Source of the DNA: Candidatus Rokuibacteriota bacterium
Lineage (GTDB): Bacteria; Methylomirabilota; Methylomirabilia; Rokubacteriales; CSP1-6
DNA length: 64,000 bases
Assembly: GCA_003220475.1 (NCBI GenBank)
Contig: QHSO01000015.1
Coordinates: forward strand, 12,479 to 76,478
Reading direction: 5' to 3'
Shown here: positions 3,327-36,960 of the stretch, piece after piece
How the letters are laid out: each line of letters starts with the position of its first letter
How positions within the stretch are numbered: position 1 is the first letter of the stretch
Program-made: the position numbers and the translations under genes
The notes under the pieces: model-generated
What the model was told of the DNA's origin: nothing
What the model saw: the letters and a program-made list of their open reading frames with translations, nothing else
The model's database searches: none

Positions 3327-4021
3327 TCGGTCAGGCGTTGGGCTGGGGCACCGGCGTAGGGGCCGCCGCGTGGGTCGGTTATGCGTGGCTGCCGCACCTG
3401 CTCACGCCGCTGTGCGCACGACGCGGCCCGCGCACCGGCCGTCGCGTGGCATTGAGCTTCGACGATGGCCCGGATCCCGACTGGACAGCACGCGTCCTGG
3501 AGATCCTCGCGAAGCACGACGTGAGCGCGACGTTCTTTCTCGTGGGCGAGCGCGCGGCACGCGCCCCCGCGAGCGTGCGCGCCATCGCCGGCGCCGGCCA
3601 CGAGATCGGCTCGCACAGCTGGTCGCACACGAGCCTGTGGCTGTGCGGCCCGCGCCGCACCGAGCGTGAGATCGCCCAGACGAAGCACCTGCTCGGCGAT
3701 CTCGCGGGCGCTCCCCCGGCGCTCTTCCGCCCACCATGGGGCATGGTCAACGCGGCGATGTTCGCGGCGCTCCGCCGCCACGCGCAGCGCTGCGTGTTCT
3801 GGTCGATCCAGCCGGAAGGTCTGCGGCCGGCGCCGGCCGAAGTCCAGGTCGCGCACGTGCTGCGGCGGGCGCACGCCGGCGCCATCGTCGACCTGCACGA
3901 TGCGGAGGGGACGCCAGGTGCGCCCGCGCGTCTCTGCGAGGCGTTGCCCGCGATGATCGACGGCCTGCGAGCGGCGGGTTACGGCTTCGCGACCGTGGGC
4001 GAGCTGCTCGCCGTCTCCTGA
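3323..4021 (+). CDS. polysaccharide deacetylase (NodB homology domain)
   Basis: The motifs LSFDDGPDP, ATFFLVG, GHEIGSHSWSH and FRPPWG are present. The GTG start overlaps the upstream TGA (GTGA). Confidence 0.85.
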   Translation: MIGQALGWGTGVGAAAWVGYAWLPHLLTPLCARRGPRTGRRVALSFDDGPDPDWTARVLEILAKHDVSATFFLVGERAARAPASVRAIAGAGHEIGSHSWSHTSLWLCGPRRTEREIAQTKHLLGDLAGAPPALFRPPWGMVNAAMFAALRRHAQRCVFWSIQPEGLRPAPAEVQVAHVLRRAHAGAIVDLHDAEGTPGAPARLCEALPAMIDGLRAAGYGFATVGELLAVS

Positions 4022-4076
4022 CGCCGCCGCGCCAGGAAGCGCACGAACTCCAGTCCCTCGCCGAGCCGGCGCTTCA

Positions 4077-5309
4077 TCACCGTGCGATCGCGCAGCATCT
4101 CGGCACCGAGCGCGACGAGCTGCCGCCCTCGAGCGCCTGCTCATAGAGCGCGGTGCCCGGGTACGGCGCGGCGAGCGAGACCTGCAGCGTGTGCGGATCG
4201 ATCTCCTGCGCGAAGCGAATGGTGGTCTCGATCGTCTCGCGCGTCTCGCCGGGCAGGCCGAGGATGAACGTCCCGTGGATATTGATGCCGAGCGCGCGCG
4301 CCGCCCGTGTGAACTCGCGCGCGCGATCCACGCGCGTGCCCTTGCGCACGTTGTTGAGAATGGTCTGGCTGCCCGACTCGTAGCCGACCAGGAGCAGCCG
4401 CAGCCCGTTGTCGCGAAAGACCTTGAGGCTCGCCGCCGGCACGTCGGCCTTGGCGTTGCACGACCAGGTGACGCCGAGCCGACCGAGCCCACGGGCGATC
4501 GCCTCCGCGCGCGGCAGGTCGTCGGTGAACGTGTCGTCGTCGAAAAAATATTCTTTCACCTGCGGGAAGAGTCGTCGCGCGTGGGCGATCTCGGCGACCA
4601 CGTTGTCGACGGACCGCGTGCGGTAGCGATGGCCACCCACCGTCTGCGGCCAGAGGCAGAACGTGCACTTCGAGCGGCAGCCGCGGCCCGTATAGAGCGA
4701 GAGGTACGGGTGCTGCAGATACCCGATGGCGTAGTGCTCGACGTCCAGATCGCGCGCGTACACGTCGACCACCCACGGCAGCGAGTCCATGTCCTCGAGG
4801 ACCGGACGCTCGGGCGTGCGGCGCAGCTCGCCGCCGATGTCGCGGTAGGAAAGCCCGGCGACCGACGCCGGCGGTCGTCCCTCGGCGATCTCGCGGATGG
4901 TGAAGTCGAACTCGTTGCCGCACACGAAGTCGAGCGCGGGCGACGCCGCCAGCGCGGCCTCTCGCTGCACGGCGACGTGCGCGCCGATCAGCCCGATCCG
5001 CAGCGCCGGGTTCTCGCCTTTCAGTGCCTCCGCGACCTTGACGTCGTGGGCGAACGACGGCGCGCTGGTGTGCAGGACGGCCAGCTCGTACTCGCGCGCG
5101 AGCGGCAGCACGTCGGCGAGCGTGAGGTCGGCGGGCGGCGCGTCGACGAGACGCGAGCCCGGCACGAGCGCCGCCGGCTGAGCGAGCCAGGTCGGATACC
5201 AGAACGACCGGATCTCGCGCCGCGCCTGGTAGCGCGAGCCGGCGCCGCCGTCGAAACCCTGAAACGATGGGGGATGAAGGAAGAGGGTCCGAAAAGTCAC
5301 GCGCCCCAT
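4077..5309 (-). CDS. hpnJ: HpnJ-family B12-binding radical SAM protein; the C-terminus appears disrupted (see findings)
   Basis: The N-terminus FLHPPSFQGFDGGAGSRYQARREIRSFWYPTWLAQPAAL and the radical SAM motif GRGCRSKCTFCLWPQT match my recollection of the HpnJ family (TIGR03471). The ORF ends abnormally after LYEQALEGG. A family-like C-terminal motif lies in another frame. Confidence 0.8.
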   Translation of the reverse strand: MGRVTFRTLFLHPPSFQGFDGGAGSRYQARREIRSFWYPTWLAQPAALVPGSRLVDAPPADLTLADVLPLAREYELAVLHTSAPSFAHDVKVAEALKGENPALRIGLIGAHVAVQREAALAASPALDFVCGNEFDFTIREIAEGRPPASVAGLSYRDIGGELRRTPERPVLEDMDSLPWVVDVYARDLDVEHYAIGYLQHPYLSLYTGRGCRSKCTFCLWPQTVGGHRYRTRSVDNVVAEIAHARRLFPQVKEYFFDDDTFTDDLPRAEAIARGLGRLGVTWSCNAKADVPAASLKVFRDNGLRLLLVGYESGSQTILNNVRKGTRVDRAREFTRAARALGINIHGTFILGLPGETRETIETTIRFAQEIDPHTLQVSLAAPYPGTALYEQALEGGSSSRSVPRCCAIAR

Positions 5310-5318
5310 CTTAGCCGA

Positions 5319-5675
5319 TCAGGTCCGCGACACCAGGAAGACGCCCAGCACGATGAAGCCGATGCCCGTCCACCGCAGCGGCGTGACCGCCTCGGCCAGC
5401 ATGAGCTGCGCGAGCAACGCGACGATGATGTAGTTGAGCGTCGTGAGCGGCAGCACCTTGCTCACGTCTTCGCGCGAGAGCAGCGCCATGTAGATGAAGA
5501 AGAAGGCGGCCTGCAGCGCCACGCCGAGCAGCACCCAGGGATTCGACAGCGTGCGGCCGAGCGGCGAGCCGACGGCCGCGGCGCCGACGACCTTCATCCC
5601 CTTGGCTAGAATGACGTGGCCGACGCCGCCGAGCAGGCTGGCGATAGCGACCCACAGCAGCGTGGTCGCCATCAC
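5319..5675 (-). CDS. small four-helix EamA/DMT-superfamily membrane protein (ArnE/ArnF-size)
   Basis: 118 aa and entirely hydrophobic, with four predicted helices and an EamA-like C-terminal GIGFIVLGVFLV. The start (GTG 5675 or ATG 5672) overlaps the upstream stop. Confidence 0.7.
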   Translation of the reverse strand: MMATTLLWVAIASLLGGVGHVILAKGMKVVGAAAVGSPLGRTLSNPWVLLGVALQAAFFFIYMALLSREDVSKVLPLTTLNYIIVALLAQLMLAEAVTPLRWTGIGFIVLGVFLVSRT

Positions 5676-6088
5676 AACGCCTTACCGATGGCCGACAGAA
5701 TCCCGCGCTCGACTTGTTTGTCGGACGCCGTGGCGATCGGCTCGTCCTTGTCCATCCAGAGGATGCGCTCGCGCTTGAAGACGTCGCGCTCGACGGTCAC
5801 GGTCGTCCGATTGTCGCTCGCCGCCTTCACGTAGAGCGTCAGCCGGTGCCGGCGGCCCTTCGCATACACGACGTAGTTGTCGCCGTCGACGCGCTGCGAT
5901 TCGGTGCCGATCATGCCGATGGTCCGGTCTTTCTTGTCGATGTCCCAGCCGAGCTGCTTGAGCACCGCCTCCGTGACCGTCCAGACACGCTCGACGGGCG
6001 CGTTGAACGTCTGCGCCACGGGCTCACCGGCCTGGGCCGCGCTGGCCAGGACGACCACGAGCGCCAGCGTGCAGATCAACGTTCGCAT
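5672..6088 (-). CDS. exported hypothetical protein (signal peptide)
   Basis: 138 aa. The signal peptide is MRTLICTLALVVVLASAAQA. A GAGGAGG RBS precedes the ATG. No family is recognised. Confidence 0.65.
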   Translation of the reverse strand: MRTLICTLALVVVLASAAQAGEPVAQTFNAPVERVWTVTEAVLKQLGWDIDKKDRTIGMIGTESQRVDGDNYVVYAKGRRHRLTLYVKAASDNRTTVTVERDVFKRERILWMDKDEPIATASDKQVERGILSAIGKAL

Positions 6089-6103
6089 TCGGGCCTCCTC
6101 ACA

Positions 6104-6787
6104 TCAATGCGGTCGTAAGCGTCCACCGGCCAGCGTGTAGACCGCGTGGGCGCCGTGGGCGGCGTCGGGCCGATGGCTCACCACGATCACCGCACCGCCC
6201 TCGCGTGCCCGCGCGCGCAACGATTCTAGAATCACCTCGCCGTTGGCGTCGTCGAGATTGCCGGTTGGCTCGTCCGCGAGCAAGAGGGGCGGGTCGTTGA
6301 GCACCGCGCGGCAGAACGCGACGCGCTGCTGCTCGCCGCCCGAGAGCTGGGCGGGATGGTGATCGCGACGCTCCCCCACGCCGAAACGCTCGAGCAGGGC
6401 CATCGCTCGGCGGCGCCGCTCGGCATCGACGCCGGTGGTGTAGCGCGCGCCGAGCAGCACGTTCTCGAGCGCCGTCAGCGCCGGCAGCAGCAGAAACGAC
6501 TGGAACACGAATCCGAGCCAGCGGCCGCGCTCGCGGCTCTTGGCTCCGCGCCCGAGCGTGCTCACGGGGCGGTCGGCGAAGCAGACCTCGCCCGCATCGG
6601 CGTCTTCGAGCAACCCGAGGACGTTGAGCAGCGTGCTCTTGCCCGAGCCCGAAGGCCCCTCGATCACCACGAGCTCGCCGCGGCGCACGACGAGATCCAC
6701 GCCGGCCAGCACCTCGATCGGCGCACCCGCCGGCGCCGCGAAGCGCTTCACCAGCCCGCGCGCGGTGAGGACCGTCTCAGGCGGCAC
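6104..6787 (-). CDS. ABC transporter ATP-binding protein (MacB/LolD/FtsE type)
   Basis: Walker A GPSGSGKST, signature LSGGEQQRV and Walker B LLLADEPTGNLD are present. 227 aa. The GTG start overlaps the permease end by 11 nt. Confidence 0.9.
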   Translation of the reverse strand: MPPETVLTARGLVKRFAAPAGAPIEVLAGVDLVVRRGELVVIEGPSGSGKSTLLNVLGLLEDADAGEVCFADRPVSTLGRGAKSRERGRWLGFVFQSFLLLPALTALENVLLGARYTTGVDAERRRRAMALLERFGVGERRDHHPAQLSGGEQQRVAFCRAVLNDPPLLLADEPTGNLDDANGEVILESLRARAREGGAVIVVSHRPDAAHGAHAVYTLAGGRLRPH

Positions 6788-7991
6788 TGCCCCTCCGAAT
6801 GGCCTCGGCGGGTGAGAGCCGCACGATGCGCAGCGCCGCGTACGCCGCGGCCGCCGCGCCGAGCAGCAGCGAGAACACGAGCGTGCCGCCGAGCAGCCGC
6901 GGCGAGAACAGGAACAGCTGCTGGCCGCTGCGGCGCGCCCAGCCGTCGATGCCGTGACCGAGCGCCAGCGCCAGCACGATCCCCACCGCGCCGCCCGAGA
7001 CCGTCACCGCGAGCGCCTCGGCGAGGATCTCGCCGCCGAGCTGCCAGTCGGTCGCGCCGAGCGCGCGCTTCACGCCGAAGTCGCGGACGCGCTCGAACAC
7101 CGCCGCCGCCACCGTGTTGGCGAGCGACAGCCCGCCGATGACGAACGCGAGCAGCCCGAGGCCGACGAGGAGTGCGGAGAAGAAGGCGGTCGACTGCCGC
7201 AGCAGCGACGACAGCTCGCTGGGGAGCTGGACGTTGACACCGGCGACACGATCCCGGATGCGCCGCGCGACGACGTCGGGATCTTCGCCCTCGCGCCAGC
7301 CGACGGCGGCGCCCGTATTGAGATCCTGCGCGCGCAGCGCGACGCCGCCGGAGGCCAGGACGGTGCGCAGCAGCCGATCCTTGGACACCCATTGATCGCG
7401 CGCATCCTCGATCGAGACGATGACGAAGCGATCGGGCGCGGTCAGCATCCGCTCGAGCACACCGACGACCTCGTACGGCTGGCCTTCCAGCTCGAGACGC
7501 GATCCGACCGCGAGACGCCGCGAGGCGGCGAACGAGGCGCCGATGACGGCCTTGCGACGATCGCCCTCGCGCAGGAACCGTCCCTCCTGCACGGGCAGCG
7601 TGCGGTAGTGGCGATTGGGTGACGGCACCGAGAGATCCATGCCGAGCACGAGTTCCTGCGTGAGCGTCATGAACTGCGAGGTGCTGGGATTGAGCGGCAG
7701 CATCACCTGTGGCTGCACCACCGCGACGCCGTCGACCGTGCGTATCGCCTCGACGGCCGCCGCCGGCAGCAGGCCACCGGCGGTGAAGCCGGCGCCCATG
7801 CCCATCCCCCGCCCCGCGACCGAGATCTGGCCGAGCACGAACCGATCGCCGCCCTCGATGAAGCGCACGATACGCTCGGCCATCGCGCCGAGCGCGACGA
7901 TGCCCGCGACGCCGATGGCAATGCCGGCGATGGTGAACAGGTAACCGCGAAGGACCCGACGCAACGCGTTGATCAGGCTCGCACGCCGCAT
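6777..7991 (-). CDS. ABC transporter permease, FtsX/MacB-like with a periplasmic domain
   Basis: 404 aa. An N-terminal transmembrane helix is followed by a ~200-aa periplasmic region and a C-terminal FtsX-type three-helix bundle (FGVKRALGAT...). Confidence 0.85.
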   Translation of the reverse strand: MRRASLINALRRVLRGYLFTIAGIAIGVAGIVALGAMAERIVRFIEGGDRFVLGQISVAGRGMGMGAGFTAGGLLPAAAVEAIRTVDGVAVVQPQVMLPLNPSTSQFMTLTQELVLGMDLSVPSPNRHYRTLPVQEGRFLREGDRRKAVIGASFAASRRLAVGSRLELEGQPYEVVGVLERMLTAPDRFVIVSIEDARDQWVSKDRLLRTVLASGGVALRAQDLNTGAAVGWREGEDPDVVARRIRDRVAGVNVQLPSELSSLLRQSTAFFSALLVGLGLLAFVIGGLSLANTVAAAVFERVRDFGVKRALGATDWQLGGEILAEALAVTVSGGAVGIVLALALGHGIDGWARRSGQQLFLFSPRLLGGTLVFSLLLGAAAAAYAALRIVRLSPAEAIRRGSAA

Positions 7992-8031
7992 CGCAGACTC
8001 GCCTCGGCCGTGGAACGGCCTGCGGCTCGCA

Positions 8032-9297
8032 CTACCACTCCAGCCTGGACTCGATGGGGAGGCCGGCGCGGCGGCGGAGCCAGCCGTTGAGGCGGGTCAG
8101 GCCGTAGAGGATCCGCAGCGCGAGGCGCAGGCGGAGCGGCGACGTCACCCAGTTGCCGCCGGACAGGACGTTGAGCACCGCCTCGTAGATGCCGAAGTGG
8201 TTGCGCGGGCGCATGAAGAGGTCGAAGAACGCCGGCTCGTAGTACTTGTGGATGAACTTGAACAGCGGCGCGAGACCGGCGCGCACGCGGCGTTCGTAGG
8301 CCGCGAAGCGCCGCGCCGAGAAATCGCCGGCCCGGAACGCTTCGGTAATCGCCGCCGCCGCCAGCTGACCCGTGCGCAGCGCGATGTAGACGCCGCCGGA
8401 GAAGATCGGATCCACGAACGCGATCGCGTCGCCGACGGCGACGTAGCGATCGCCGACCACCGGCGAGTTGTCGTAGGCGAAGCTGGCCTGCCGGTGCACC
8501 GGCGTCACGCGCACGGCGCCAGCAAGAGCCTCGGACACGCCGCGGCTGCGCGCAACCATCGCGTAGAAGAGCGCCTCGAGCTCACCCGTCCACGCTTTGA
8601 CCGTGCGCGCGTGGCAGACAGCGCCCACGCTGGTGAGACCGCCCGCGAGCGGGATCCACCAGAGCCAGCCTTCGCGCATGACATAGATGCGGATGTTGCC
8701 TTCGTCGCGGCCCGACTGGCGGGCGGCGCCCTTGAAATGCGCGAAGAGCGCGACCTTGCCGAGATTCGGAATGCGGCGGCGCCGGCCGTAGCGGCTGGCC
8801 ATGAGCGCGTCGCGGCCGGTGGCGTCCACGAGCATCGCGGCCCGGACGCGCGGGGCTCCGCTCTCGCTGCTCGCCGTGACGGTGACGCCGTCGGCATTGA
8901 ACTCCGTCGCCTCGACCGACGCCGGCTGATAGACCGTGACGCCGCGCTTCTTGGCGTGCTCCAGGAGGACGGTGTCGAACTCGGCGCGCGGCACCTGATA
9001 GGAGTAGTTCGGCCACGGCTGGCCGGGCAGGAAATAGAAGGTCTGCGCGCCGCCCGTCTCCTCGTCGTGAAAGCTGGCGCCATACTTCAGCTGGAACCCG
9101 CGCTCATCCATCGCGGCCCTGACGCCGAGCTGCTCCAGCAGGAGCATGCTGGCTGGCATCAACGACTCGCCGACGTGAAAGCGCGGGAAACGCTCGCGCT
9201 CGAACAGCGCCACGCGCAGCCCCGCGTCGGCGAGGAACGTGGCGGTGCTGGAGCCGCCGGGTCCGCCGCCGGCGACGATGACGTCGAAGGCGTCCAT
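8032..9297 (-). CDS. FAD-dependent halogenase-like oxidoreductase
   Basis: The protein has DVIVAGGGPGGS (GxGxxG), FPRFHVGESL, GFQLKYGASF (candidate catalytic Lys) and GWLWWIPL, which is the WxWxIP motif characteristic of flavin halogenases. The real start is the ATG at 9297; the track ORF carries a spurious N-terminal extension. Confidence 0.8.
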   Translation of the reverse strand: MDAFDVIVAGGGPGGSSTATFLADAGLRVALFERERFPRFHVGESLMPASMLLLEQLGVRAAMDERGFQLKYGASFHDEETGGAQTFYFLPGQPWPNYSYQVPRAEFDTVLLEHAKKRGVTVYQPASVEATEFNADGVTVTASSESGAPRVRAAMLVDATGRDALMASRYGRRRRIPNLGKVALFAHFKGAARQSGRDEGNIRIYVMREGWLWWIPLAGGLTSVGAVCHARTVKAWTGELEALFYAMVARSRGVSEALAGAVRVTPVHRQASFAYDNSPVVGDRYVAVGDAIAFVDPIFSGGVYIALRTGQLAAAAITEAFRAGDFSARRFAAYERRVRAGLAPLFKFIHKYYEPAFFDLFMRPRNHFGIYEAVLNVLSGGNWVTSPLRLRLALRILYGLTRLNGWLRRRAGLPIESRLEW

Positions 9298-10346
9298 CAG
9301 GACCCTGTCCACGCCGTGCCGACCGCCATCGCCGCCGGCGCGGGCTCCGCGTGCAGACGCTGCTGCGCGTAGAGGGCCACGATGAGCGCCGTCAGCGCCG
9401 GCACCCGCAACCCGGTCAACGCGGCCAGCACGAGCAACGGCAGCACCAGCGGCAGCCCCAGCACCGCGGTCGCCGCCGCCACCGCGCGACGCGGCCGTGG
9501 ATGGCGCCACCACCACGCGAGCCGACCGCCGGCGCGGCGCACGGCGAGCAGCGCGATCATCGATCCCCACGTCATCCCGCCCGCGTACGGCGCCGCCGTC
9601 TCGAGGAGCGCGGCGTGTCGCTCGCGGGCCAGGCGCCCGGCCACGACCGACGCGATCTCGCCGCCGGCCGCCGCCACCTCGCGCGCGCCGCGCGCGATCG
9701 AGCGGCCGGCGAGGTGCGCGCCGATCGCAATCCCGTCGACGACGGGACGGAACCGGCTGCGCGCCGCCACGCGCGGCAGCGCGCGCACCGGCACTTCGCG
9801 GATCGTCCAACCGTGCCCGGCCGCCGCCAGCAACACCTCCGTCTCGAACACGAAGCCGCCGTGGTGCGCGGACACCTCGTCGAAGATCTCGAGCGGATAG
9901 ACGCGAAAGCCAGACTGCGTGTCGATCAGCCGCAGTCCGCTCGCCCAGTTGACGAAGAAGCCGGCGACCACGATGGCCTCGGCGCGGCCCGGCGGCAGCG
10001 CCGCGTCGCCGTAGAGCCGCGCGCCCACGACCAGCGTGCGCGGTGCGGCGGCGGCGAGCAACGCCGGCACGTCATCCGAGTCGTGCTGGCCGTCGGCATC
10101 CAGCGTGACGACGTGCGTGGCGCCGCGCGCGCGCGCCGCCGCCACGCCCGTGCGCAGCGCCTCCGCCTTGCCGCACCGCCGCCGATGACGGCAAACGTCG
10201 GCGCCGGCGAGCGCCGCCGCCTGCGCGGTCCCGTCGGTCGAGCCGTCGTCCACCACGATGACCGGTGCGTGCCGGCGCGCGCGGCGCACGACGTCGCCGA
10301 CCGTGGTGGCCTCATCGTGCGCGGGGACGACGACGAACGTGTTCAC
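9297..10346 (-). CDS. family 2 glycosyltransferase (DPM1/ArnC/ApeJ-like) with a C-terminal membrane anchor
   Basis: The motifs are VVVPAHDEATTVGDVV, VIVVDDGSTDGT and VTLDADGQHD (DxD). C-terminal transmembrane helices are present. The GTG start at 10346 forms a GTGA overlap with the upstream stop. Confidence 0.8.
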   Translation of the reverse strand: MNTFVVVPAHDEATTVGDVVRRARRHAPVIVVDDGSTDGTAQAAALAGADVCRHRRRCGKAEALRTGVAAARARGATHVVTLDADGQHDSDDVPALLAAAAPRTLVVGARLYGDAALPPGRAEAIVVAGFFVNWASGLRLIDTQSGFRVYPLEIFDEVSAHHGGFVFETEVLLAAAGHGWTIREVPVRALPRVAARSRFRPVVDGIAIGAHLAGRSIARGAREVAAAGGEIASVVAGRLARERHAALLETAAPYAGGMTWGSMIALLAVRRAGGRLAWWWRHPRPRRAVAAATAVLGLPLVLPLLVLAALTGLRVPALTALIVALYAQQRLHAEPAPAAMAVGTAWTGS

Positions 10347-11413
10347 GCGGCGTCCACGAGCAACGCCACGTGGGCGCCGCCGCGCGCGAGCCCGTGCACG
10401 AGCCCGCGTCCCGGCCGGACACGCGCGACGTGCGCCGTGCCGTTCACGACGGGCAGCAGACCGGAGCGCGCCGTCCACGCGGCGGCCGCGACGCGCAGCA
10501 CGCCTAATCCCGCGTGACGGCCGAGCAGCCGGCCGAGGCTCGACACCGGTGGCCCGCCGGGAAGCGCGGCGCCGAGCACCGCTTCTTCCCAACGATCGCG
10601 CGGCTCGTCATCGCTGGCTGATGCGTACACCCAGCCGACGTCGCCGGGCTGCGCGCCCGCCGCGCGCAACACGGCCTCGATCGCCTGTGAGCGGCGGGCG
10701 CGTCCGACGCCCCATGGACGGGAACGCAGCGCGCGCCAGGCCGCTGCGCTCACCTCGCCCAGCACCGTGGCGCCGCGCGCGTGCGCCGTCGCGCGTGGCT
10801 CGAGCACGAGGAACGCCGCCCCCTCGCCGCGACGCTCACCGGCGAGCCCCAGCCGCCTCAGCTCGTGCTCGACGACGGAATCGAGCTCGTCGACGCCGCC
10901 CACGAGCACCGCCGGCACGCGCCCGCTCGCGACCGCCGCCGTCGCGCGGGCGACCGCAAGCTCGCCGGCCACGGTCGGCGCATTGAGCGTCAGCGCCATC
11001 TCCCGCGCGCCGACCGCGATGGCCGTCGTCGCGATCATCGTGTTCATCACCGTGTTCGGAAAGAGCAGGGCGGACAGTCCCGCCGGGCCGCGGGCGAGGA
11101 AGCCGTCGGCGAACGCGTGCGTCGAGCCGAGGTCGCCGAATTCCGTCCCCACGACGAGTCCGAGCGCGGCGTCACGCTCGAGCCCGGACTCGCGCAGCGC
11201 CAGCCGTGCCGCGGTCACGGTCAGCTGGCAGACGCGCGACAGTCGCCGCGCTTCGTCCGGATCGACGAGAGCGGCGAGCGCGCCGGCGCCGAACGCGGTG
11301 TCCGGCGGTGCCACGGGGGCCGCGAGGAACGCACCGAGCGCCGCGGAGTCGCCGGTGACGGCGGCGCTCACGACGCCGACGCCGGTGATCGCGACGCCGG
11401 ACCGCGTCGTCAT
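10343..11413 (-). CDS. beta-ketoacyl synthase-like protein lacking the active-site Cys (chain-length-factor-like)
   Basis: 356 aa with a thiolase-fold KS pattern (ITGVGVVSA...). The nucleophile position reads LNAPTVAGE instead of TACSS. ATGA overlap with the upstream KS. Confidence 0.75.
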   Translation of the reverse strand: MTTRSGVAITGVGVVSAAVTGDSAALGAFLAAPVAPPDTAFGAGALAALVDPDEARRLSRVCQLTVTAARLALRESGLERDAALGLVVGTEFGDLGSTHAFADGFLARGPAGLSALLFPNTVMNTMIATTAIAVGAREMALTLNAPTVAGELAVARATAAVASGRVPAVLVGGVDELDSVVEHELRRLGLAGERRGEGAAFLVLEPRATAHARGATVLGEVSAAAWRALRSRPWGVGRARRSQAIEAVLRAAGAQPGDVGWVYASASDDEPRDRWEEAVLGAALPGGPPVSSLGRLLGRHAGLGVLRVAAAAWTARSGLLPVVNGTAHVARVRPGRGLVHGLARGGAHVALLVDAA

Positions 11414-12594
11414 GCCACGCCGCGGCGGAAGAGCAACGTCACGTTCTGACCGCCGAATCCGAACGAATTGGAGATCGCGCACGTCAGCGGCGCGGCGCGC
11501 GAGACGCGCGGCACACAGTCGAACGGCACGTCCCCGTCCGGCGTGACGAGGTTCGCCGTCGGCGGCACGACGCCGTGCTCGAGCGCGAGCACGGTGGCGA
11601 TCGCCTCGAGGCTGCCGGCGGCGGCCATCGTGTGGCCGATCATCGACTTCGCGGAGGAGACGAGCAGTCCGCCCTCGCCGAAGACCCGTGCGAGCGCGCG
11701 GGCCTCGATGCGATCGTTTTGCGGCGTGCCGGTGCCGTGCGCGTTGGCGTACTGCACCTCCGCCGGCGCGGCGCCCGCCACTCTCAGCGCCGCCGTCATC
11801 GCGCGCACCATGCCGTCGCCCTCGGGTTCCGGCGCCGTCACGTGGAACGCATCGGTCGTCATGCCGTGCCCCGCGAGCGTCGCGTACACGCGCGCGCGTC
11901 GCGCGCGGGCACGCGCCTGGGACTCGAGCACCAGGAAGCCGGCGCCCTCGCCGATCGACATCCCGCGGCGCTCCTGATCGAACGGACGGCACGGCGCCGG
12001 ATCGAGAATCTTCAGCGCGTTGAAGCCCATGAAGCAGATGCGGGTGATCGCGTCGACACCGCCGGCGACCGCGACGTCGACCACACCGTCGGCGATCAGC
12101 TCGGCCGCCTCCGCGAGCGCGACCGCGCCCGAGCTGCACGCCGTGACGACCGTGTGCCGCGGACCGCCGAGGCCCAAGCGGCTCGACAGCGTTTCGGCGT
12201 GCGCGGAGGGCAGCATGGCGCGTACCGCGCGGACGGAGGCGGGCCGCGCGCCCTCGCGCGCGCCGCGCCAGTACCACGCCTCGGCCTCCAGCATGCCGCC
12301 GCCGACGGCGCCGACGACGAGCGCCGCCGCGCGGCAATCGCGCGCGCCGAGGCCCGCATCCGCGAGGGCCTCGGCGGCGGCGGCGATGGCCAGACGGTCG
12401 GCGCGCGTGCGGCGCGCCGAGCCCGCAGGCGTTCCGGGGACCTCCGCGCCGATCCGGCAGCGGAAGCCCTCGGTCTCGATCAGCGTGAGGTCGCGGATCG
12501 TGCAGACGCCGGCGGCGAGCCCCTTCCAGTACGCGACGAGCCCCGCGCCGTATGGACTGACGGCGCCGAGGCCGGTGATGACGACCGACTTCAT
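11410..12594 (-). CDS. beta-ketoacyl-ACP synthase (FabF-like KS)
   Basis: 394 aa. The active-site motifs TACSSG, HGTGTPQND and GHTMAAAG are present, and the C-terminus reads NSFGFGGQN. Confidence 0.9.
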   Translation of the reverse strand: MKSVVITGLGAVSPYGAGLVAYWKGLAAGVCTIRDLTLIETEGFRCRIGAEVPGTPAGSARRTRADRLAIAAAAEALADAGLGARDCRAAALVVGAVGGGMLEAEAWYWRGAREGARPASVRAVRAMLPSAHAETLSSRLGLGGPRHTVVTACSSGAVALAEAAELIADGVVDVAVAGGVDAITRICFMGFNALKILDPAPCRPFDQERRGMSIGEGAGFLVLESQARARARRARVYATLAGHGMTTDAFHVTAPEPEGDGMVRAMTAALRVAGAAPAEVQYANAHGTGTPQNDRIEARALARVFGEGGLLVSSAKSMIGHTMAAAGSLEAIATVLALEHGVVPPTANLVTPDGDVPFDCVPRVSRAAPLTCAISNSFGFGGQNVTLLFRRGVA

Positions 12595-12866
12595 GCGGAG
12601 GGCAGCTTCCCTGCGATGAACCGCGACAGCGTGTCGAAGGAGGCGAAATGCTCGGAGAGATCCTGGTTTTCGTCCAGGGCGATGCCGAAGCGCTCTTCGA
12701 TCGCGATCGACAGTTCGATGAAGTCGAGGGAGTCGAGGCCGATCGAGCCTTCGATGCCCTTGGGCAGCGGCGTCGACTCGGTGGTCTCCGCTGCGCGCCG
12801 CGGATCGAACTTCAGACGCGATACCAGGACCGTCTTCAGCTCGTCGAGGACTTCCTTGGCTTCCAT
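12591..12866 (-). CDS. acyl carrier protein
   Basis: 91 aa. GLDSLDFIEL is the phosphopantetheine attachment motif. A strong AGGAGGG RBS precedes the ATG at 12866. The stop forms an ATGA overlap with the KS start. Confidence 0.85.
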   Translation of the reverse strand: MEAKEVLDELKTVLVSRLKFDPRRAAETTESTPLPKGIEGSIGLDSLDFIELSIAIEERFGIALDENQDLSEHFASFDTLSRFIAGKLPSA

Positions 12867-12873
12867 GACCCTC

Positions 12874-13749
12874 CTATGTTGCGACCGCGATCTGCGCGCG
12901 CCGGCCGCGCCAGCGCCCGGTGACGCGCGCGATCGGCATTCCGGCGGCACGCGCGAGCGCCAGCTCCACGAGCGGCGCGCACGCGAGCGTCTCGCCCGCC
13001 CGGCGCGTGACCAGCGTCTCGAGCGTCGAGGCGGCGCCGGGACCGTATCCTATGTCCGCGTCGTCAGCGCCCGCGAGCACGGCGCACGCCGCGGCCTCCA
13101 CCAGCGGGCGCGGCGTCACCCAGCGGCCGCGCGTCCAGAGATCCGCACATTCCTCGAACGTCTCCACCGCGAGCACGAGCGCGAGATCGGCGTCGCCGGC
13201 CGCGAGCAGCGTACTCGCCTGCCACAGCGCGTCCACGCCGGCCGATGCCCCGCCCACAAGAATGACATACCCGCCCGTCAACCCATACTCGATCGCGACC
13301 TCGGCTGGCACCGAGCTCGGAGCCGTGTACGGAAAATAGATGGCGCCGCCCGTTTTCGCGCGGCCGGCACCCTCGGTCGCGCCCGGACTCTGGGCCTCGA
13401 TCGCGACAACGCCGTCCGGTCCGCCGTTCGCCCGGACCTGGCTCGCGGCCTCGGCCACGATGAAGCGCTTGTTGCTCGCGCCGTATGCCGCCGCCGTCAC
13501 GTACACCAGCGCCGTCCGCGACCCGGCCACGGCCGCCCGATCCAGAGCGCTGTCGCGCAGCGCCGCTCCCACCGCGGCCACCCCCAGCAGGCACTCGCGC
13601 GTCGCGCGCCGGAATCGCTCGCCGGCGATGGCCGGCGTCGCCATCGGCACCACGCGGCGCTCACCCGCGGCGCGGCGCGCGTCGTCGGGCAGCGCGGCGA
13701 CGCCCTCGCCCCACGCGGTCAGCAGGCCGACGCCGAGGACGCGCGTCAC
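12874..13749 (-). CDS. truncated KS-like protein without a catalytic Cys (second CLF-like partner)
   Basis: 291 aa with a KS N-terminal-like fold. The nucleophile position reads LVGGASAGVDAL. The GTG start forms a GTGA overlap with the upstream KS stop. Confidence 0.65.
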   Translation of the reverse strand: MTRVLGVGLLTAWGEGVAALPDDARRAAGERRVVPMATPAIAGERFRRATRECLLGVAAVGAALRDSALDRAAVAGSRTALVYVTAAAYGASNKRFIVAEAASQVRANGGPDGVVAIEAQSPGATEGAGRAKTGGAIYFPYTAPSSVPAEVAIEYGLTGGYVILVGGASAGVDALWQASTLLAAGDADLALVLAVETFEECADLWTRGRWVTPRPLVEAAACAVLAGADDADIGYGPGAASTLETLVTRRAGETLACAPLVELALARAAGMPIARVTGRWRGRRAQIAVAT

Positions 13750-14915
13750 GCCGTGCCCTCGAGCACCAGCGCGGCATTGCAGCCGCCGAAGCCGAGCGAA
13801 GTGCTGAGGCTCACGCGCGAGCGGGCGGCACGCGCGGTCGCGCGGACGTCGAGGTCGCATGCCGGGTCCGCTTCCTCATACCCCGCCGTCCCCGGCACGA
13901 CGCCGTCGCGCGAGGCGAGCAGGCACATGATCGCCTCGAGCGTCGCGGCCGCGCCCATCGTGTGACCGAGCGCGCCCTTGATCGAGTTGACGGGCACGGC
14001 ATCGGCGCGGGCGCCGAGCACGCGACGGAGCACGGCCGTCTCGATGCGATCGTTCAGCGGCGTGCCCGTGCCGTGAGCGCTGACGAAGTCCACGGCATCG
14101 CTGCCCACGCCGGCGGCGCCCAGCGCGCCGCGCACCGCATGGGCGAGCCCGCGGCCTTCGGGATCCGGCGCCGCGACGTGCGAGCCGTCGCTGCTGCTCG
14201 CATGGCCGAGCAGCCGCCCGAGCCGCGGCCGCGGCGCGTCGCCCTCACGCGCCATGAGGACGAGCGCGGCGGCCTCGCCCAGCAACAGTCCGCTGCGGCG
14301 GCGGTCGAAGGGACGCACGCGCTCACGCGTCAGCGAGCGCAGGGCGTCGAAGCCGCGCATGACGAACCGGCAGAGCACGTCGTAGCCGCCCGCGACGACG
14401 AGGTCGGCGGCGTTCGCGGCGAGCAGATCGGCGCCCACGCCCATCGCGGTGGCGCCCGAGGCGCACGCCGTGGAGACGGTCAGCACCGGGCCGCGCGCCG
14501 ACAGCCGGCGCGCCAACGCATGGGCGGGACCATCGTAGAGCGCCGCGGCGGCCACGCGCGCCCCGCGCCCGACCATCGCGCGCTCGCCTTCCTCGACGCC
14601 GCCCAGCGCGGTGCCGACGACGACCGCGAGTCGTGCGGGATCGGCGGGCAGCGTGGCGCGCGCGAGCAGATCGTCGGCGGCCAGTATCAGCAGCGCGGAG
14701 GCGCGGCAGCGCGGCAGCCGCCCCTTGCGCGGCGCGCGCAGCTTCTTGATCTCGCCGCCGCGCCCGACGCGCAGGTCGTCGACGCGGAAGCGCTCGATGG
14801 TCGAAATGCCATCGACCCCGGTGCACAACGCCGACCAGAACGTGTCGAGATCCAGTCCGAGCGGCGTCGCGACACCGGCCGCGACGACGACGGCGCTCGA
14901 TCCACCACGCCTCAC
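13746..14915 (-). CDS. beta-ketoacyl-ACP synthase (KS)
   Basis: 389 aa. The motifs TACASG, HGTGTPLND and GHTMGAA are present, and the C-terminus reads TSLGFGGCN. The GTG start forms a GTGA overlap with the acyltransferase stop. Confidence 0.85.
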   Translation of the reverse strand: MRRGGSSAVVVAAGVATPLGLDLDTFWSALCTGVDGISTIERFRVDDLRVGRGGEIKKLRAPRKGRLPRCRASALLILAADDLLARATLPADPARLAVVVGTALGGVEEGERAMVGRGARVAAAALYDGPAHALARRLSARGPVLTVSTACASGATAMGVGADLLAANAADLVVAGGYDVLCRFVMRGFDALRSLTRERVRPFDRRRSGLLLGEAAALVLMAREGDAPRPRLGRLLGHASSSDGSHVAAPDPEGRGLAHAVRGALGAAGVGSDAVDFVSAHGTGTPLNDRIETAVLRRVLGARADAVPVNSIKGALGHTMGAAATLEAIMCLLASRDGVVPGTAGYEEADPACDLDVRATARAARSRVSLSTSLGFGGCNAALVLEGTA

Positions 14916-15841
14916 GCGGGCGGACTCCAGACGTCGTAGAAGTTGAACCACTGCGCCGGATGCCGCTTCACCATCGCCTGCAGTGTCGCCACCCAGCGGC
15001 GCAGCGCGGCCTCCTCGCCGCCCGCCTCCACCGAGGACGGCGCGCCGACGACGATGCGATAGCGCCGGTCGGCGTCGAGGAGGCAGAACGCGGGAACGAC
15101 CGGCGCGCCGGCGGCGCGCGCCAGCACGAACGGCCCCAGCGGAAACGGCGCCGGCGCGCCGAAGAACGGCTGCAGCACGTCGCCCCGCGTGCCGAGCGCG
15201 CGATCGCCCTGCAGCGCGACGATCTCCCCGCGACGCAGCGCGGCCAGCAGCGCGAGCGACGCGGTCGGCGCCGCGCACGTCACGAAGCGAACCGGCGCGA
15301 CGCCGCCGCGCAGGAAGCGCTCGACGGCGGGATCGGCCTCGGCGGCGACGACGACGTGCGTAGGGCGCGCACCGTCGCGCGCCAGCATCCGGCCGGCGAG
15401 CTCCCAGTTGCCGAGGTGGGCGGTGAGCACGACGAGACCGCGGCCGTCGCGCGTGGCCTTCTGCAGCTCGGCCATCCCGTCGATCGCGGCGACGAGCGCG
15501 CCGACGCCCGCGCGGCGGTTGGCCGTGATGAGATCGGCGAAACAGACGGCGAAGTTGCGAAAGACCGCGCCGACGAGCTCGTCCAGCGCGCGGGGCGGTG
15601 TGCCCGGCAGGATGCGTGTGAGATTTCGGCGGACGACCGCGCGCTCGGCCGGCAGTCGCCGTGAGGCGACGTCGGCCAGCCGCATGGCCACCCGCAGACG
15701 CATCGGTCGCGGCATGGCCGACGCCGCCAGCGAGGCCACGCGATAGACGACCGCGCGATTGAAGCCGTGTGCGTACCAGCGCGGCGCGGGTGCGACGGCG
15801 CCGGCAACCGCCGTCGTCGTCGCGGGCGTCACAGCAGCCAT
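14912..15841 (-). CDS. LpxL/HtrB-family lysophospholipid (lipid A-type) acyltransferase
   Basis: 309 aa. The HLGNWELAG (Hx4E) catalytic motif and the C-terminal HPAQWFNFYDVW are typical of the Lip_A_acyltrans family. The ATG at 15841 overlaps the upstream gene by 13 nt. Confidence 0.8.
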   Translation of the reverse strand: MAAVTPATTTAVAGAVAPAPRWYAHGFNRAVVYRVASLAASAMPRPMRLRVAMRLADVASRRLPAERAVVRRNLTRILPGTPPRALDELVGAVFRNFAVCFADLITANRRAGVGALVAAIDGMAELQKATRDGRGLVVLTAHLGNWELAGRMLARDGARPTHVVVAAEADPAVERFLRGGVAPVRFVTCAAPTASLALLAALRRGEIVALQGDRALGTRGDVLQPFFGAPAPFPLGPFVLARAAGAPVVPAFCLLDADRRYRIVVGAPSSVEAGGEEAALRRWVATLQAMVKRHPAQWFNFYDVWSPPA

Positions 15842-16596
15842 GAGTAGTACATGCGGAAGACGCGAATGGGGCCCACGCGCGTGTCGTACACGCGGCTGGC
15901 GATGAAGCGCTCCTGATGGGCATCGAACACAACCGCGCCGGGCGCGGCCGGATCGTTCGGGTCCCACACGGTCAGCTCGACGCCGTCGCCGGCCGCGCGA
16001 TAGCCATAGGCAACCACCGTGTGGTTCAGCTCCGGCTTCGGCCAGTTGGTGACGAGCAGCTGCACGAGGCGACCGGCCGCCAGCTCGTCGAGCACTTCGT
16101 CGAGGATCTCCGCCTGGTGGCCATCGGGCACCGGCATGGTGGTGCGCCAGTTCGTCCAGTGCACGAGCGTCCAGAAGCGCGCGTTGAGTCCCGCCTTCAC
16201 CGCGGCTTCCTCCGCCGCCGAGAACGCGCGCAGGTTCGCGAAGCCGGGGATGACGACACGCTCGGCCGGCGGCAGCGGCGGTTGCCAGGGCGCGTGCGCG
16301 GCGACCGCGCGCACGCGACGCATGTACTCGTCCGCATCGACCCGCGGCGCCGACGCGTCGAAGCGCGCGAACTGGTGGAACTGCCGAAGTCCGCGACCGA
16401 GCACGAAGCAGTAGTTGGCGTAGAGGTGCTCCGCGTGCGGATCGTGGGCGCGGACCATGTTGGGAAACGCGAAGGTGTCGTCGGCGAAGCTGAAGCCGGG
16501 GACGCTCGCCGCCGCGGGCCGCGCCTGCCGCCGGACCGGCGCGTGAGCGCATGCCGCGGTGAGCAGGGCCAGCGCGACCACCGCGATCTGGCTCAT
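15829..16596 (-). CDS. lipoprotein with a putative papain/C39-like cysteine peptidase fold
   Basis: The signal peptide carries the lipobox LLTAAC. YANYCFVLGRG is the candidate Cys nucleophile. NHTVVAYGYRAAGDGVELTVWDPNDP is the candidate His, followed by a pattern seen in C39-like domains. The fold call rests on motifs only. Confidence 0.6.
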   Translation of the reverse strand: MSQIAVVALALLTAACAHAPVRRQARPAAASVPGFSFADDTFAFPNMVRAHDPHAEHLYANYCFVLGRGLRQFHQFARFDASAPRVDADEYMRRVRAVAAHAPWQPPLPPAERVVIPGFANLRAFSAAEEAAVKAGLNARFWTLVHWTNWRTTMPVPDGHQAEILDEVLDELAAGRLVQLLVTNWPKPELNHTVVAYGYRAAGDGVELTVWDPNDPAAPGAVVFDAHQERFIASRVYDTRVGPIRVFRMYYSWLL

Positions 16597-16675
16597 GGCT
16601 TCTCACCCTAATTGTCGCCCCCCCACCGCGTCAAGAACCCTGCGGGTCGTGTGCTATCCTCCCGTCCGGTCCCGC

Positions 16676-17662
16676 ATGACGCGCGCGCTGTCCTTGCTCT
16701 ACCGTCTGGTCTACGAAGGCGTCCTGAGCCGACTTCCGGAGCCGACGGCCGTGGCGCTGGGCCAGCAGGCGCTGCGCGTGCTGCCCCTGGACCGCCTGCC
16801 CGTCTTCCGTCGTGAGGATCCGCGCCTGGCCGTGAGCCTCGGCGGCGTGCGCCTGCCCAATCCGCTGATCCTCGCCGCGATGTACTACGACACGCGCATC
16901 CTCTCGCGCGCGATGGGCCTGGGGTTCGGCGCCGTCACCGCGAAGTCGATCACGACCGAGCCGCGGCCCGGCCAACCGCAGCCGAACCTCGTCCGCCGCA
17001 CGAGCCCCGCCGGCCCCGGCCTGGTCAACTGCAACGGCTTCGCGAATCCGGGCCTCGTTCGCTTCCGCGAGGCCGTCGCCGGGCTGCCGCACCGCGTGCC
17101 GCTGATCGTCAGCGTGGCCGGCGAATCGGCCGAGGACTACGTGACGCTGGTACGCGGTCTCGCGCCCCACGGCGATCTCGTCGAGTTCAACGTCTCCTCG
17201 CCCAACACCAAATTGGTCTACGGCTGGTCGACGCGGCCGCGCGAGCTGCGCGCGATGCTCGAGGCGGTGCGCGCGGCCACCGACAAGCCGCTGATCGTGA
17301 AGCTCTCGCCCGACTTCGCCGAGACCAACGAGCGCGACATCATTCCCGCGGCGCTGGAGGCCGGCATCCGCGTCGTGAATTACGGCAATGCGCGCCGCAT
17401 TGTCGAGCCGCGGCTGTCGCAGGGGGCGGGCGGGCTTTCGGGCCCCGAAATTTTTCCGGCGACGCTCGAGCACCTGCGCGCGACGCGCAAAATCTTCGGC
17501 GATTCGCTCGACATCATCGCCACCGGCGGCGTGGACACGCCGGACAAAGCGCTCGCGCTGCTCGATGCCGGCGCGACGGCCATCGGCTACTTCACCGGAT
17601 TCATCACGCGCGGGCCGATGCTGGCGCGCCGCACCCTCGACGCGCTCGTCGGGCGGCTCTGA
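16676..17662 (+). CDS. dihydroorotate dehydrogenase-like flavoprotein (PyrD family)
   Basis: 328 aa. The motifs are VNCNGFANPG, EFNVSSPNT (catalytic Ser region), LIVKLSPDF and IIATGGV. I chose the ATG at 16676. Confidence 0.8.
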   Translation: MTRALSLLYRLVYEGVLSRLPEPTAVALGQQALRVLPLDRLPVFRREDPRLAVSLGGVRLPNPLILAAMYYDTRILSRAMGLGFGAVTAKSITTEPRPGQPQPNLVRRTSPAGPGLVNCNGFANPGLVRFREAVAGLPHRVPLIVSVAGESAEDYVTLVRGLAPHGDLVEFNVSSPNTKLVYGWSTRPRELRAMLEAVRAATDKPLIVKLSPDFAETNERDIIPAALEAGIRVVNYGNARRIVEPRLSQGAGGLSGPEIFPATLEHLRATRKIFGDSLDIIATGGVDTPDKALALLDAGATAIGYFTGFITRGPMLARRTLDALVGRL

Positions 17663-36924: not shown

Positions 36925-36960
36925 GCGCCACTCCTTTTCTGCGAAAGGGTTGGACGACCC

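Follow-up and report, generated by a model that had tools for sequence, protein, structure and literature searches.

Gene content of the array

The 64-kb window analysed here, which is the whole stretch of DNA from Candidatus Rokuibacteriota bacterium, contains an array of 14 co-directional minus-strand genes at positions 4077-16596. The array encodes two ketosynthases (KS1 and KS2), two Cys-less KS-like partners (CLF1 and CLF2) and an acyl carrier protein (ACP), together with a family 2 glycosyltransferase (GT2), a flavin-dependent halogenase-like enzyme (HAL), a MacB-type exporter and HpnJ, a B12-binding radical SAM enzyme (Table 1). Because the window is ~71% G+C, coding frames were picked by G+C content at third codon positions and by motifs. 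An earlier note on this DNA had described the order of the 14 genes and their domains, and both were confirmed by Pfam and NCBIfam profile searches; its account of the junctions needs some correction. It had counted eight overlapping junctions in the biosynthetic half; seven of these do overlap (by 13, 4, 4, 4, 4, 4 and 1 nt), and the CLF1 and ACP genes are separated by a 7-nt gap. From the halogenase gene to hpnJ, gaps (40, 15 and 9 nt, in this order) alternate with overlaps (11 and 4 nt), such that three of the remaining junctions are gaps of 9-40 nt, as had been stated, and two are overlaps. A sequence scan detected terminator-like and promoter-like sites in the array at chance level only, and those detected sit within genes. 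The tight junctions and the chance-level terminators are compatible with a single transcription unit, without proving one. The spacer between the halogenase and FtsX permease genes is present as a single copy in the window; some sister assemblies have a 49-nt tandem duplication that spans the FtsX start codon, and other sister assemblies show scaffold Ns at this position.

Both ketosynthases have the catalytic Cys/His/His residues, which are absent from CLF1 and CLF2; the latter two proteins have almost no solved relatives. KS2 is FabF-like (357 bits, NCBIfam), and its nearest relatives in the PDB are FabF proteins, with Iga11 and the actinorhodin KS more distant. Pfam and NCBIfam searches found no ketoreductase (KR), dehydratase (DH), thioesterase (TE), cyclase or AMP-ligase among the 14 genes. 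We rejected an aromatic type II polyketide synthase, since FabF is the closer relative of the ketosynthases (282 bits, against 190 bits for the actinorhodin KS) and there is no cyclase or aromatase; CLF2 barely matches the actinorhodin CLF (27 bits). Rhizobial very-long-chain fatty acid (AcpXL/LpxXL), cispentacin (AmcB/F) and ladderane readings were likewise set aside, as they yielded sub-threshold family scores only, and HpnJ scores 75 bits against the ladderane-type B12 radical SAM model TIGR04072, for which the cutoff is 360. A recently deposited two-chain "3-oxoacyl-ACP synthase" complex in the PDB (9S5H, chains B/C) matches KS2 with 280 bits and CLF2 with 45 bits; we did not use it.

The earlier assignment of a flavin-dependent halogenase-like enzyme, with halogenation as its predicted activity, is strong: the GxGxxG motif (GGGPGG at residue 10), the Lys region (FQLKYGASF at residue 68) and the WxWxIP motif (WLWWIP at residue 211) are all present, WxWxIP is kept in 54 of 54 loci, and the top PDB matches are halogenases (ChlB4, 233 bits; PltA, 215; Mpy16, 214; CndH, 189; CmlS, 165). 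These nearest solved relatives are carrier-protein-dependent enzymes, which fits action on an ACP-bound intermediate. The protein resembles carrier-protein-dependent flavin-dependent halogenases in its motifs and PDB relatives, but differs from them in that its predicted substrate is a lipid-type ACP intermediate, and in that it scores below every NCBIfam equivalog cutoff (for CmlS, 192 versus 900).

The first gene encodes a putative lipoprotein that had been called C39-like. We found no C39 match in Pfam or NCBIfam and no C39 peptidase in the Foldseek results, and we have dropped this identity for a generic papain-like fold, to which the AF2 model (pLDDT 77.6) has weak matches (IdeS, Lpg2622 and cathepsins; best E 2e-3, TM 0.31-0.40). 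Cys63, His192 and Asp212 are invariant both in near homologs and in those of 25-40% identity, and it is plausible that the protein is a papain-like Cys-His-Asp hydrolase or transferase. Its family has 451 representatives in a library of 1.84 billion proteins. At the other end of the array, the ABC ATPase matches the DarD, YbbA, MacB and LolD models, all below cutoff, and is most similar to DarD (the darobactin exporter) and MacB. The small exported protein encoded next to it (EXP; single-sequence structure model, pLDDT 47) is a possible periplasmic partner of the exporter.

Table 1. Genes of the array, neighbouring genes and related features in other loci. Positions are those of the window unless a locus is named. 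The last column gives the number of loci in which the gene is present over the number of informative loci.
Feature	Position	Strand	Evidence and remarks	Present/informative loci
Lipobox/signal protein, DUF8321/DUF8322	15829-16596	-	signal peptide and LLTAAC lipobox; precomputed Pfam PF26995/PF26997	52/57
LpxL/PatA-type acyltransferase (LPLAT)	14912-15841	-	PF03279, 99 bits; HLGNWE motif	41/61
Ketosynthase KS1	13746-14915	-	PF00109 and PF02801; Cys149/His/His	61/63
CLF1, Cys-less KS-like partner, 291 aa	12874-13749	-	weak PF00109 match; active-site Cys and His absent	63/65
Dedicated ACP	12591-12866	-	PF00550; DSL motif	66/69
Ketosynthase KS2	11410-12594	-	PF00109 and PF02801; Cys151/His/His	70/70
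CLF2, Cys-less KS-like partner, 356 aa	10343-11413	-	weak PF00109; Cys and His absent	
Membrane-anchored GT2, PpgS/DPM1/ArnC kind	9297-10346	-	PF00535; DAD motif; C-terminal hydrophobic segment, residues 287-327	64/65
Flavin-dependent halogenase-like enzyme (HAL)	8032-9297	-	PF04820; GxGxxG, WxWxIP, Lys region	54/56
HAL-FtsX spacer	7992-8031		duplication variants: L001 18560-18665, L008 8001-8105, L004/L009/L013	
MacB-type (FtsX) permease, 4 transmembrane segments	6777-7991	-	MacB_PCD and FtsX	51/52
ABC ATPase, MacB/LolD/DevA kind	6104-6787	-	PF00005	51/52
EXP, small exported protein, 138 aa	5672-6088	-	signal peptide; no Pfam/NCBIfam family	32/49
Half-size EamA protein, ArnE/ArnF-like, 118 aa, 4 transmembrane segments	5319-5675	-	PF00892, 39 bits	28/49
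hpnJ, B12-binding radical SAM enzyme, disrupted	3979-5309	-	TIGR03471; in-frame part 4077-5309, out-of-frame remnant to 3979	32/41
NodB-type polysaccharide deacetylase, convergent with hpnJ	3323-4021	+	PF01522, 112 bits; candidate accessory (ArnD/HpnK-like role)	
MGDG-synthase/UgtP-like glycolipid glycosyltransferase (GT28)	2193-3326	+	PF06925; NF010135 254 bits, below cutoff; candidate accessory or neighbour	
DHODH-family (pyrD-like) gene	16559-17662	+	divergent from the array	
NYN-domain protein	262-1167	-	weak zinc-ribbon match	
763-aa cobalamin-type fusion protein	41367-43658	-	DBI_PRT, CbiA and GATase_3 domains	
cbiB-like gene	31114-32319			
TonB-dependent receptor	35026-37104			
FecCD gene	37959-39113			
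cobQ-like gene	39847-41370			
ArnT-like PMT_2 GT-C glycosyltransferase, examples in relatives	L017 16260-17906; L093 8278-9975; L052 16225-18075; L064 15326-17152			35/44
SDR and 329-aa polytopic protein, deep clade	L062 2834-4723		also L061-L067, L071-L075, L084-L088; no Pfam/NCBIfam family for the 329-aa protein	
Distant DUF8321/8322 gene with AMP-ligase and APE-type set, ending at nusA/infB	L143 2410-10738		also L120, L127, L158, L165, L168	
ApeJ of E. coli CFT073	L176 41212-42888		LpxL-like acyltransferase domain in the C-terminal half (residues 352-552)	

Conservation across Methylomirabilota

To compare gene neighbourhoods, species-representative genomes were scanned with an alignment of CLF2, yielding 78 loci, and every protein of the window was placed in these loci by tblastn. 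Almost all of the CLF2-type loci belong to Methylomirabilota/Rokuibacteriota, and the array is found in ~70 species-level metagenome-assembled genomes (MAGs) of Methylomirabilota/Rokubacteria. CLF2 homologs (n=910) point the same way: the named ones come from Rokubacteria or Methylomirabilota MAGs, with a few labelled Binatia. The loci share the order DUF-LPLAT-KS1-CLF1-ACP-KS2-CLF2-GT2-HAL-FtsX-ABC-(EXP)-(EamA)-(GT-C)-(DedA)-HpnJ, and >95% of informative loci contain the core from KS1 through the ABC ATPase. HpnJ homologs of ~81% identity, which were chosen independently, fall in the same cluster.

In a deep clade, whose CLF2 is only 41-44% identical, the array is flanked instead by RNase D (upstream) and serA (downstream), and the pyrD-like, deacetylase and GT28 neighbours seen in the window are lacking. 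HpnJ still terminates the array in 11 of 12 loci of this clade. The KS block, the exporter and HpnJ thus behave as a unit despite the different flanks, and the loss of synteny that the earlier note had named as grounds for abandoning a single system was not observed.

The cluster appears to be typically, or ancestrally, larger than 14 genes. In most relatives, including the closest ones, a PMT_2 glycosyltransferase of the GT-C fold, whose best family relative is ArnT, is encoded between EamA and HpnJ; we found no GT-C gene in the whole window or in sister contigs. Deep-clade loci additionally have a DedA/UptA-like protein and, on the same strand directly upstream of the DUF gene, a FabG-like short-chain dehydrogenase/reductase (SDR) and an internally duplicated polytopic membrane protein of 329 aa, with which the clusters of this clade begin. 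Thus, while all the genes of the earlier 14-gene description are present, it had overlooked the GT-C gene of the relatives, the DedA and SDR genes of the deep clade, and the conserved pair formed by the convergent NodB-type deacetylase gene and the GT28 gene. The deacetylase gene adjoins the array in 25 of 39 loci, all of them in the near clade and some of them without HpnJ, and the GT28 gene adjoins it in 17 of 39; L048, L050 and L052 retain the pair without HpnJ.

Past position 16596 lie housekeeping genes (a divergent pyrD-like gene, glyoxalase, radC, tsaE, nnr, acpS, glmM, ybbR, cdaA, folP and ftsH). The pyrD-like gene occupies this position throughout the near clade, but deep-clade loci lack it there. 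At the hpnJ end, several related loci retain a gene for an NYN-domain protein downstream of the GT28/deacetylase pair. The rest of the window holds genes for TonB and a TonB-dependent receptor, cobalamin genes, and genes for TPR proteins, GGT, a peptide ABC system and PEPCK; TonB and its receptor indicate that the organism is diderm. The cobalamin group includes a gene for a 763-aa protein in which a CobT-like DBI_PRT phosphoribosyltransferase domain is fused to CbiA/GATase_3 (CobB/CobQ-like) domains.

It is conceivable that the array is a conventional biosynthetic gene cluster (BGC) for a secreted, halogenated polyketide, either an antibiotic or a signal, with the MacB-type pump serving as both exporter and self-resistance. 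We regard this as very improbable. The KS/CLF/ACP set, a bona fide halogenase-type enzyme, an ABC ATPase closest to DarD and MacB, and the KS-rich BGC content for which Rokubacteria are noted in the literature would all suit such a product. However, the cluster has no cyclase, aromatase, thioesterase or tailoring set, and it includes genes for a lipid-type acyltransferase, a lipid-phosphate-type GT2 and flippase-like, GT-C and DedA proteins. Moreover, it is near-universal, syntenic and located among housekeeping genes (pyrD-like, radC, tsaE, glmM and ftsH), which is more typical of a core envelope function.

Relationship to aryl polyene and Arn-type systems

As a reference for aryl polyene (APE) clusters we used apeA-R of E. 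coli CFT073, comparing the encoded proteins with those of the window by BLAST and with the whole window by tblastn. The GT2 and the LPLAT match the two halves of ApeJ: GT2 residues 5-209 align with ApeJ 9-224 (31% identity, E 1e-20), and LPLAT residues 124-308 align with ApeJ 352-552 (31% identity, E 7e-18). The two genes therefore correspond to a split version of the bifunctional ApeJ. The LpxL-like acyltransferase domain in the C-terminal half of ApeJ is missed by Pfam and was caught by BLAST with the LPLAT. PpgS is the best NCBIfam relative of the GT2 (113 bits versus a cutoff of 370) and also of ApeJ, and that of the LPLAT is a phosphatidylinositol mannoside (PIM) acyltransferase, not LpxL. 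Identity to ApeO is 34-36% for KS1 and 34-39% for KS2; the best NCBIfam model for KS1 is the ApeO-type NF006618 (274.6 bits versus a cutoff of 407), against which KS2 scores 294.9 bits and ApeO itself 556. The ACP is 34% identical to ApeE and scores 37.6 bits against NF006617, for which the cutoff is 70 and ApeE itself scores 89.5.

In the aryl polyene lipid (APEL), an aryl polyene is esterified on a GalNAc-1-phosphate-glycerol lipid; ApeJ is proposed to add GalNAc to a glycerol-phosphate lipid and then to acylate the sugar from the ApeE-bound chain, and apeL, apeM, apeN and apeG are the export genes (bioRxiv 10.1101/2020.12.19.423268; PMC8253772). The cluster resembles the APE clusters of E. 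coli CFT073 and Xenorhabdus doucetiae in its ApeO-related, FabF-like ketosynthases, its ApeE-like ACP and its ApeJ halves, in having a lipoprotein as the first gene, and in having a dedicated exporter, consistent with an outer-membrane destination. By contrast, ApeA, B, C, D, F, G, H, I, K, L, M, N, P and Q have no homolog in the window. Among the features missing are the ApeH ligase, the ApeQ ketoreductase, the ApeI/P dehydratases, the ApeK thioesterase, the ApeB methyltransferase, ApeD and ApeG, and in place of the ApeL/M/N/G export set (LolA, MMPL, DUF3261 and COG4648) there is a MacB-type ABC pump. Neither the ApeC family (PF13723, which ApeC itself matches with 225 bits) nor the ApeD family (PF01553) is present in the cluster. 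CLF1 and CLF2 match neither PF13723 nor, by BLAST, ApeC, and the 14 genes lack AMP-binding, adh_short and FabA/MaoC domains; within cluster-type loci, the SDR is confined to the deep clade. The rokubacterial cluster also differs in having two KS/partner pairs for one ACP, Cys-less partners that are not ApeC-type, and an ApeJ split into two genes, and it adds a halogenase, a MacB-type pump, EamA, in some loci GT-C and DedA, and HpnJ. The APE resemblance pointed out in the earlier note thus stands for the ApeO, ApeE and ApeJ homologies and does not extend to membership of the APE family, given that ApeC, ApeD, ApeH, the KR, DH and TE functions, and LolA/MMPL are absent and that the KS and ACP scores are below cutoff.

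A further connection comes from the first gene. We used an alignment of six sequences to scan metagenomes for distant DUF8321/8322 loci. Distant members (25-40% identity), which come from lower-GC organisms in other phyla, have a divergent AMP-ligase gene as their partner in 20 of 26 long loci, and in seven of the 26 this pair abuts an APE-typical MMPL-LPLAT-LolA-FabA(-GT2) set. Hence, the DUF8321/8322 family occurs beside APE-type gene sets elsewhere. Judged by homology, the cluster shares the ApeJ/ApeE/ApeO core yet lacks several features that define APE clusters, and it is restricted to Methylomirabilota. The best-supported reading is that it encodes an envelope-glycolipid system that descends from, or shares ancestry with, APEL clusters. 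It is distinguished by the MacB exporter, an Arn-like set and the recruitment of HpnJ, the last of which is the novel element. We found no description of such a cluster in the literature on Rokubacteria (hopanoid, APE and ladderane), HpnJ or DUF8321/8322, which agrees with the earlier suggestion that the system is undescribed.

The typical cluster also holds a set of genes that looks like a three-component periplasmic glycosylation system (ArnC/ArnD/ArnE-F/ArnT; PpgS-Rv3779; Gtr; Lgm). The likeness lies in a GT2 with C-terminal membrane segments, an EamA protein closest to ArnE and a NodB-type deacetylase, to which most relatives add a DedA/UptA-like protein and a PMT_2 GT-C whose nearest family is ArnT. 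NodB-type deacetylases belong to the same Pfam family as ArnD. The differences are that scores are far below cutoff (for EamA against ArnE, 27.5 bits versus 92), that KS/ACP, halogenase and ABC genes are interspersed among the set, and that the window, which has the PpgS-like GT2 and EamA, lacks GT-C and DedA. In addition, the cluster GT2 may, like ApeJ, use the phosphate of a phospholipid and not polyprenyl phosphate.

These Arn-like genes bear on a second alternative, in which the cluster remodels lipid A or lipopolysaccharide: the KS/ACP set would make a very long or halogenated chain that an LpxL-family late acyltransferase adds to lipid A (cf. rhizobial AcpXL/LpxXL), and an Arn/Lgm-like set (GT2, NodB deacetylase, EamA, ArnT-like GT-C and DedA) would add an amino sugar. 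This proposal seems to us quite improbable. Every Arn and Lpx model score is far under its curated cutoff, and the rhizobial-type models PRK06519 and PRK07081 score poorly. The acyltransferase does belong to PF03279 and has the HxxxxE motif, but it is nearest to the PIM acyltransferase model and aligns with the C-terminal half of ApeJ. Similarly, ArnE and ArnT are the best NCBIfam relatives of EamA and GT-C, and the DedA protein is UptA-like, but the window has no GT-C. The organism is diderm, and lipid A has been weighed as a possible APE anchor (Johnston et al., PMC8253772); however, lipid A remodelling leaves HpnJ and the halogenase without a role.

HpnJ and the proposed pathway

The intact HpnJ of the population scores 742.3 bits against TIGR03471 (equivalog cutoff 577.6), with a match spanning profile positions 2-471 of 472, and on this score it is a true member of the HpnJ family. 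It is 61-65% identical to annotated HpnJ from Burkholderiaceae and Methylobacterium (~62% for Burkholderiaceae). The allele in the window contains the CRSKCTFC (CX3CX2C) motif and scores 651 bits, and its match ends at profile position 391 of 472. The hpnJ disruption that the earlier note had flagged at 3979-4160 is real in this sequence: compared with intact sister contigs there is a clean 133-nt frameshifting deletion between 4122 and 4121, the frame stops at 4077, and the last 47 codons continue out of frame to 3979. The same locus is found in sister contigs from many soil metagenomes, and hpnJ is intact (487 aa) in eight of eight, indicating that the disruption is confined to the strain or assembly seen here. 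On either side of the deletion, the window and one sister contig are 100% identical. We rejected an assembly collapse as the origin of the lesion because there is no microhomology or repeat at the junction, which leaves a true strain deletion or a consensus error.

The function of HpnJ is known from genetics: deletion of hpnJ in Burkholderia cenocepacia leads to loss of bacteriohopanetetrol (BHT) cyclitol ether (PMC13459092). The proposed reaction is contraction of the sugar ring of BHT-glucosamine, for which calditol synthase offers a comparable case, and the mechanism of HpnJ has not been reconstituted in vitro (PMC13459092). In its canonical context (Paraburkholderia; Burkholderiaceae/Methylobacterium), hpnJ lies beside hpnI, hpnK and an LPG-synthase-domain gene. 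The rokubacterial arrangement is similar to the hpnI-hpnK-hpnJ module of B. cenocepacia in having a full-length TIGR03471 HpnJ with a glycosyltransferase and a deacetylase nearby, echoing the GlcNAc to GlcN to cyclitol logic of HpnI, HpnK and HpnJ. It differs in that the neighbouring glycosyltransferase is a PpgS-like GT2 or a GT28, the deacetylase is NodB-type and not YdjC, and hpnJ lies at the end of a KS/ACP/exporter array; HpnI, HpnK and HpnL homologs were found neither in the window nor, to a distance of 10 kb, in the 78 loci. We also found no hopanoid genes elsewhere in the window, SHC (squalene-hopene cyclase) and HpnH included.

The main rival to a single system is one of separate, neighbouring envelope-lipid modules, with lipid A remodelling and a secreted polyketide less likely. 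Here, the KS/CLF/ACP/GT2/LPLAT/halogenase/MacB genes make one lipid and HpnJ is a hopanoid enzyme parked at the end of the array, with the NodB deacetylase and the GT28 of the near clade as non-orthologous stand-ins for HpnK and HpnI; we consider this reading unlikely. The strength of the HpnJ profile match and its identity to hopanoid HpnJ are what such modules would predict, as is the absence of HpnJ from nine of 41 informative loci in which the rest of the array persists. By contrast, two deep clades whose flanks are unrelated both keep HpnJ on the strand of the array as its 3'-terminal gene, only 9 nt separate hpnJ from the preceding gene in the window, and no hpnI, hpnK or hpnL gene accompanies it. 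As for the stand-ins, the deep clade has no nearby deacetylase or GT28, and the deacetylase/GT28 pair remains in the three loci noted above that lack HpnJ.

Our leading proposal, which we hold with about as much confidence as doubt, is a single system, conserved in Methylomirabilota (Rokubacteria), in which an envelope glycolipid is built, decorated and exported by a rebuilt relative of the APEL pathway. Gene content, motifs, homologies and conserved synteny, all of which were observed, together suggest the following scheme, in which all of the chemistry is predicted, including the acceptor lipid, the halogenation and the substrate of HpnJ. First, the two KS/Cys-less-KS pairs and the ACP would assemble an ACP-bound acyl or polyketide chain, with reductive enzymes borrowed from fatty-acid synthesis or, in the deep clade, provided by the cluster SDR. 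Second, the carrier-protein-type flavin halogenase would halogenate the ACP-bound chain. Third, the membrane-anchored GT2 would transfer an N-acetylhexosamine to the phosphate of a membrane lipid, as proposed for the N-terminal half of ApeJ, and, fourth, the LpxL-type acyltransferase would shift the ACP-bound chain onto this sugar, as proposed for the C-terminal half. The earlier note had expected that an ApeJ-type GT2 would weaken the case for remodelling; the GT2 is indeed of the ApeJ/PpgS kind, but this supplies a mechanism instead. Fifth, where they are present, the NodB deacetylase and HpnJ could turn the amino sugar into a carbocyclic aminocyclitol, in parallel with the conversion of BHT-GlcNAc to BHT-GlcN and BHT cyclitol ether; the product of HpnJ would be expected to be an isomer of its substrate. 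Sixth, in most relatives, EamA, the ArnT-like GT-C and DedA may add a periplasmic glycosyl modification. Seventh, the MacB-type pump, EXP and the papain-like lipoprotein would extract or process the lipid en route to the outer membrane. In the strain or assembly represented by the window, the HpnJ step would be defective owing to the hpnJ deletion, and the periplasmic glycosyl step would be incomplete without a GT-C.

The fifth step includes a more specific proposal, about which we are more doubtful than confident: that HpnJ has been recruited to a non-hopanoid pathway, in which it converts the amino-sugar head of an APEL-like, halogenated acyl-glycophospholipid to an aminocyclitol, giving a new class of carbocycle-headed bacterial lipids that a phylum-wide cluster makes and a MacB-type pump exports. 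If HpnJ acts on the cluster sugar, the chemistry would be that of hopanoid HpnJ and of the Sulfolobus calditol synthase Cds, namely radical-SAM contraction of a hexose or hexosamine to a carbocycle on a membrane lipid (PMC13459092), and the cluster lipid would differ from both precedents in being neither a hopanoid nor an archaeal tetraether.

Several observations weigh against a single pathway of this kind. The cluster in the window has no KR, DH, TE or starter-loading enzyme. LPLAT is absent from about one third of loci, and HpnJ and GT-C from ~20% each, so these steps are not obligatory. The deacetylase and GT28 genes are on the opposite strand to the array and are missing in the deep clade. 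Instead of acting on a lipid phosphate in the ApeJ manner, the GT2 could make a polyprenyl-phosphate sugar, as an ArnC-like synthase, for use by the GT-C. Lastly, beyond the closeness of the rokubacterial enzyme to canonical hopanoid HpnJ, HpnJ domains have been reported, in a recent survey, solely in genomes with SHC and HpnH, and Rokubacteria, which according to the literature generally carry SHC, as well as HpnCDE and HpnP, are inferred there to be hopanoid producers; on these grounds, the substrate of HpnJ may be a hopanoid and not the lipid of the cluster.

Rokubacteria are abundant, uncultured soil bacteria, and a near-universal, syntenic lipid cluster provides a concrete handle on their envelope chemistry. 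The split-ApeJ connection ties the cluster to APE, the most widespread bacterial BGC family, and shows the extent to which an APE-type pathway can be rebuilt, with another exporter, the aryl starter enzymes gone and a halogenase added. If a true HpnJ acts on the cluster lipid, this would be a third case of radical-SAM sugar ring contraction on membrane lipids; cyclitol head groups and metagenomic hpnJ genes would then no longer be purely hopanoid markers, which bears on the interpretation of biomarkers. If HpnJ is simply a hopanoid enzyme, its conserved adjacency to the array would still suggest co-regulated remodelling of the envelope.

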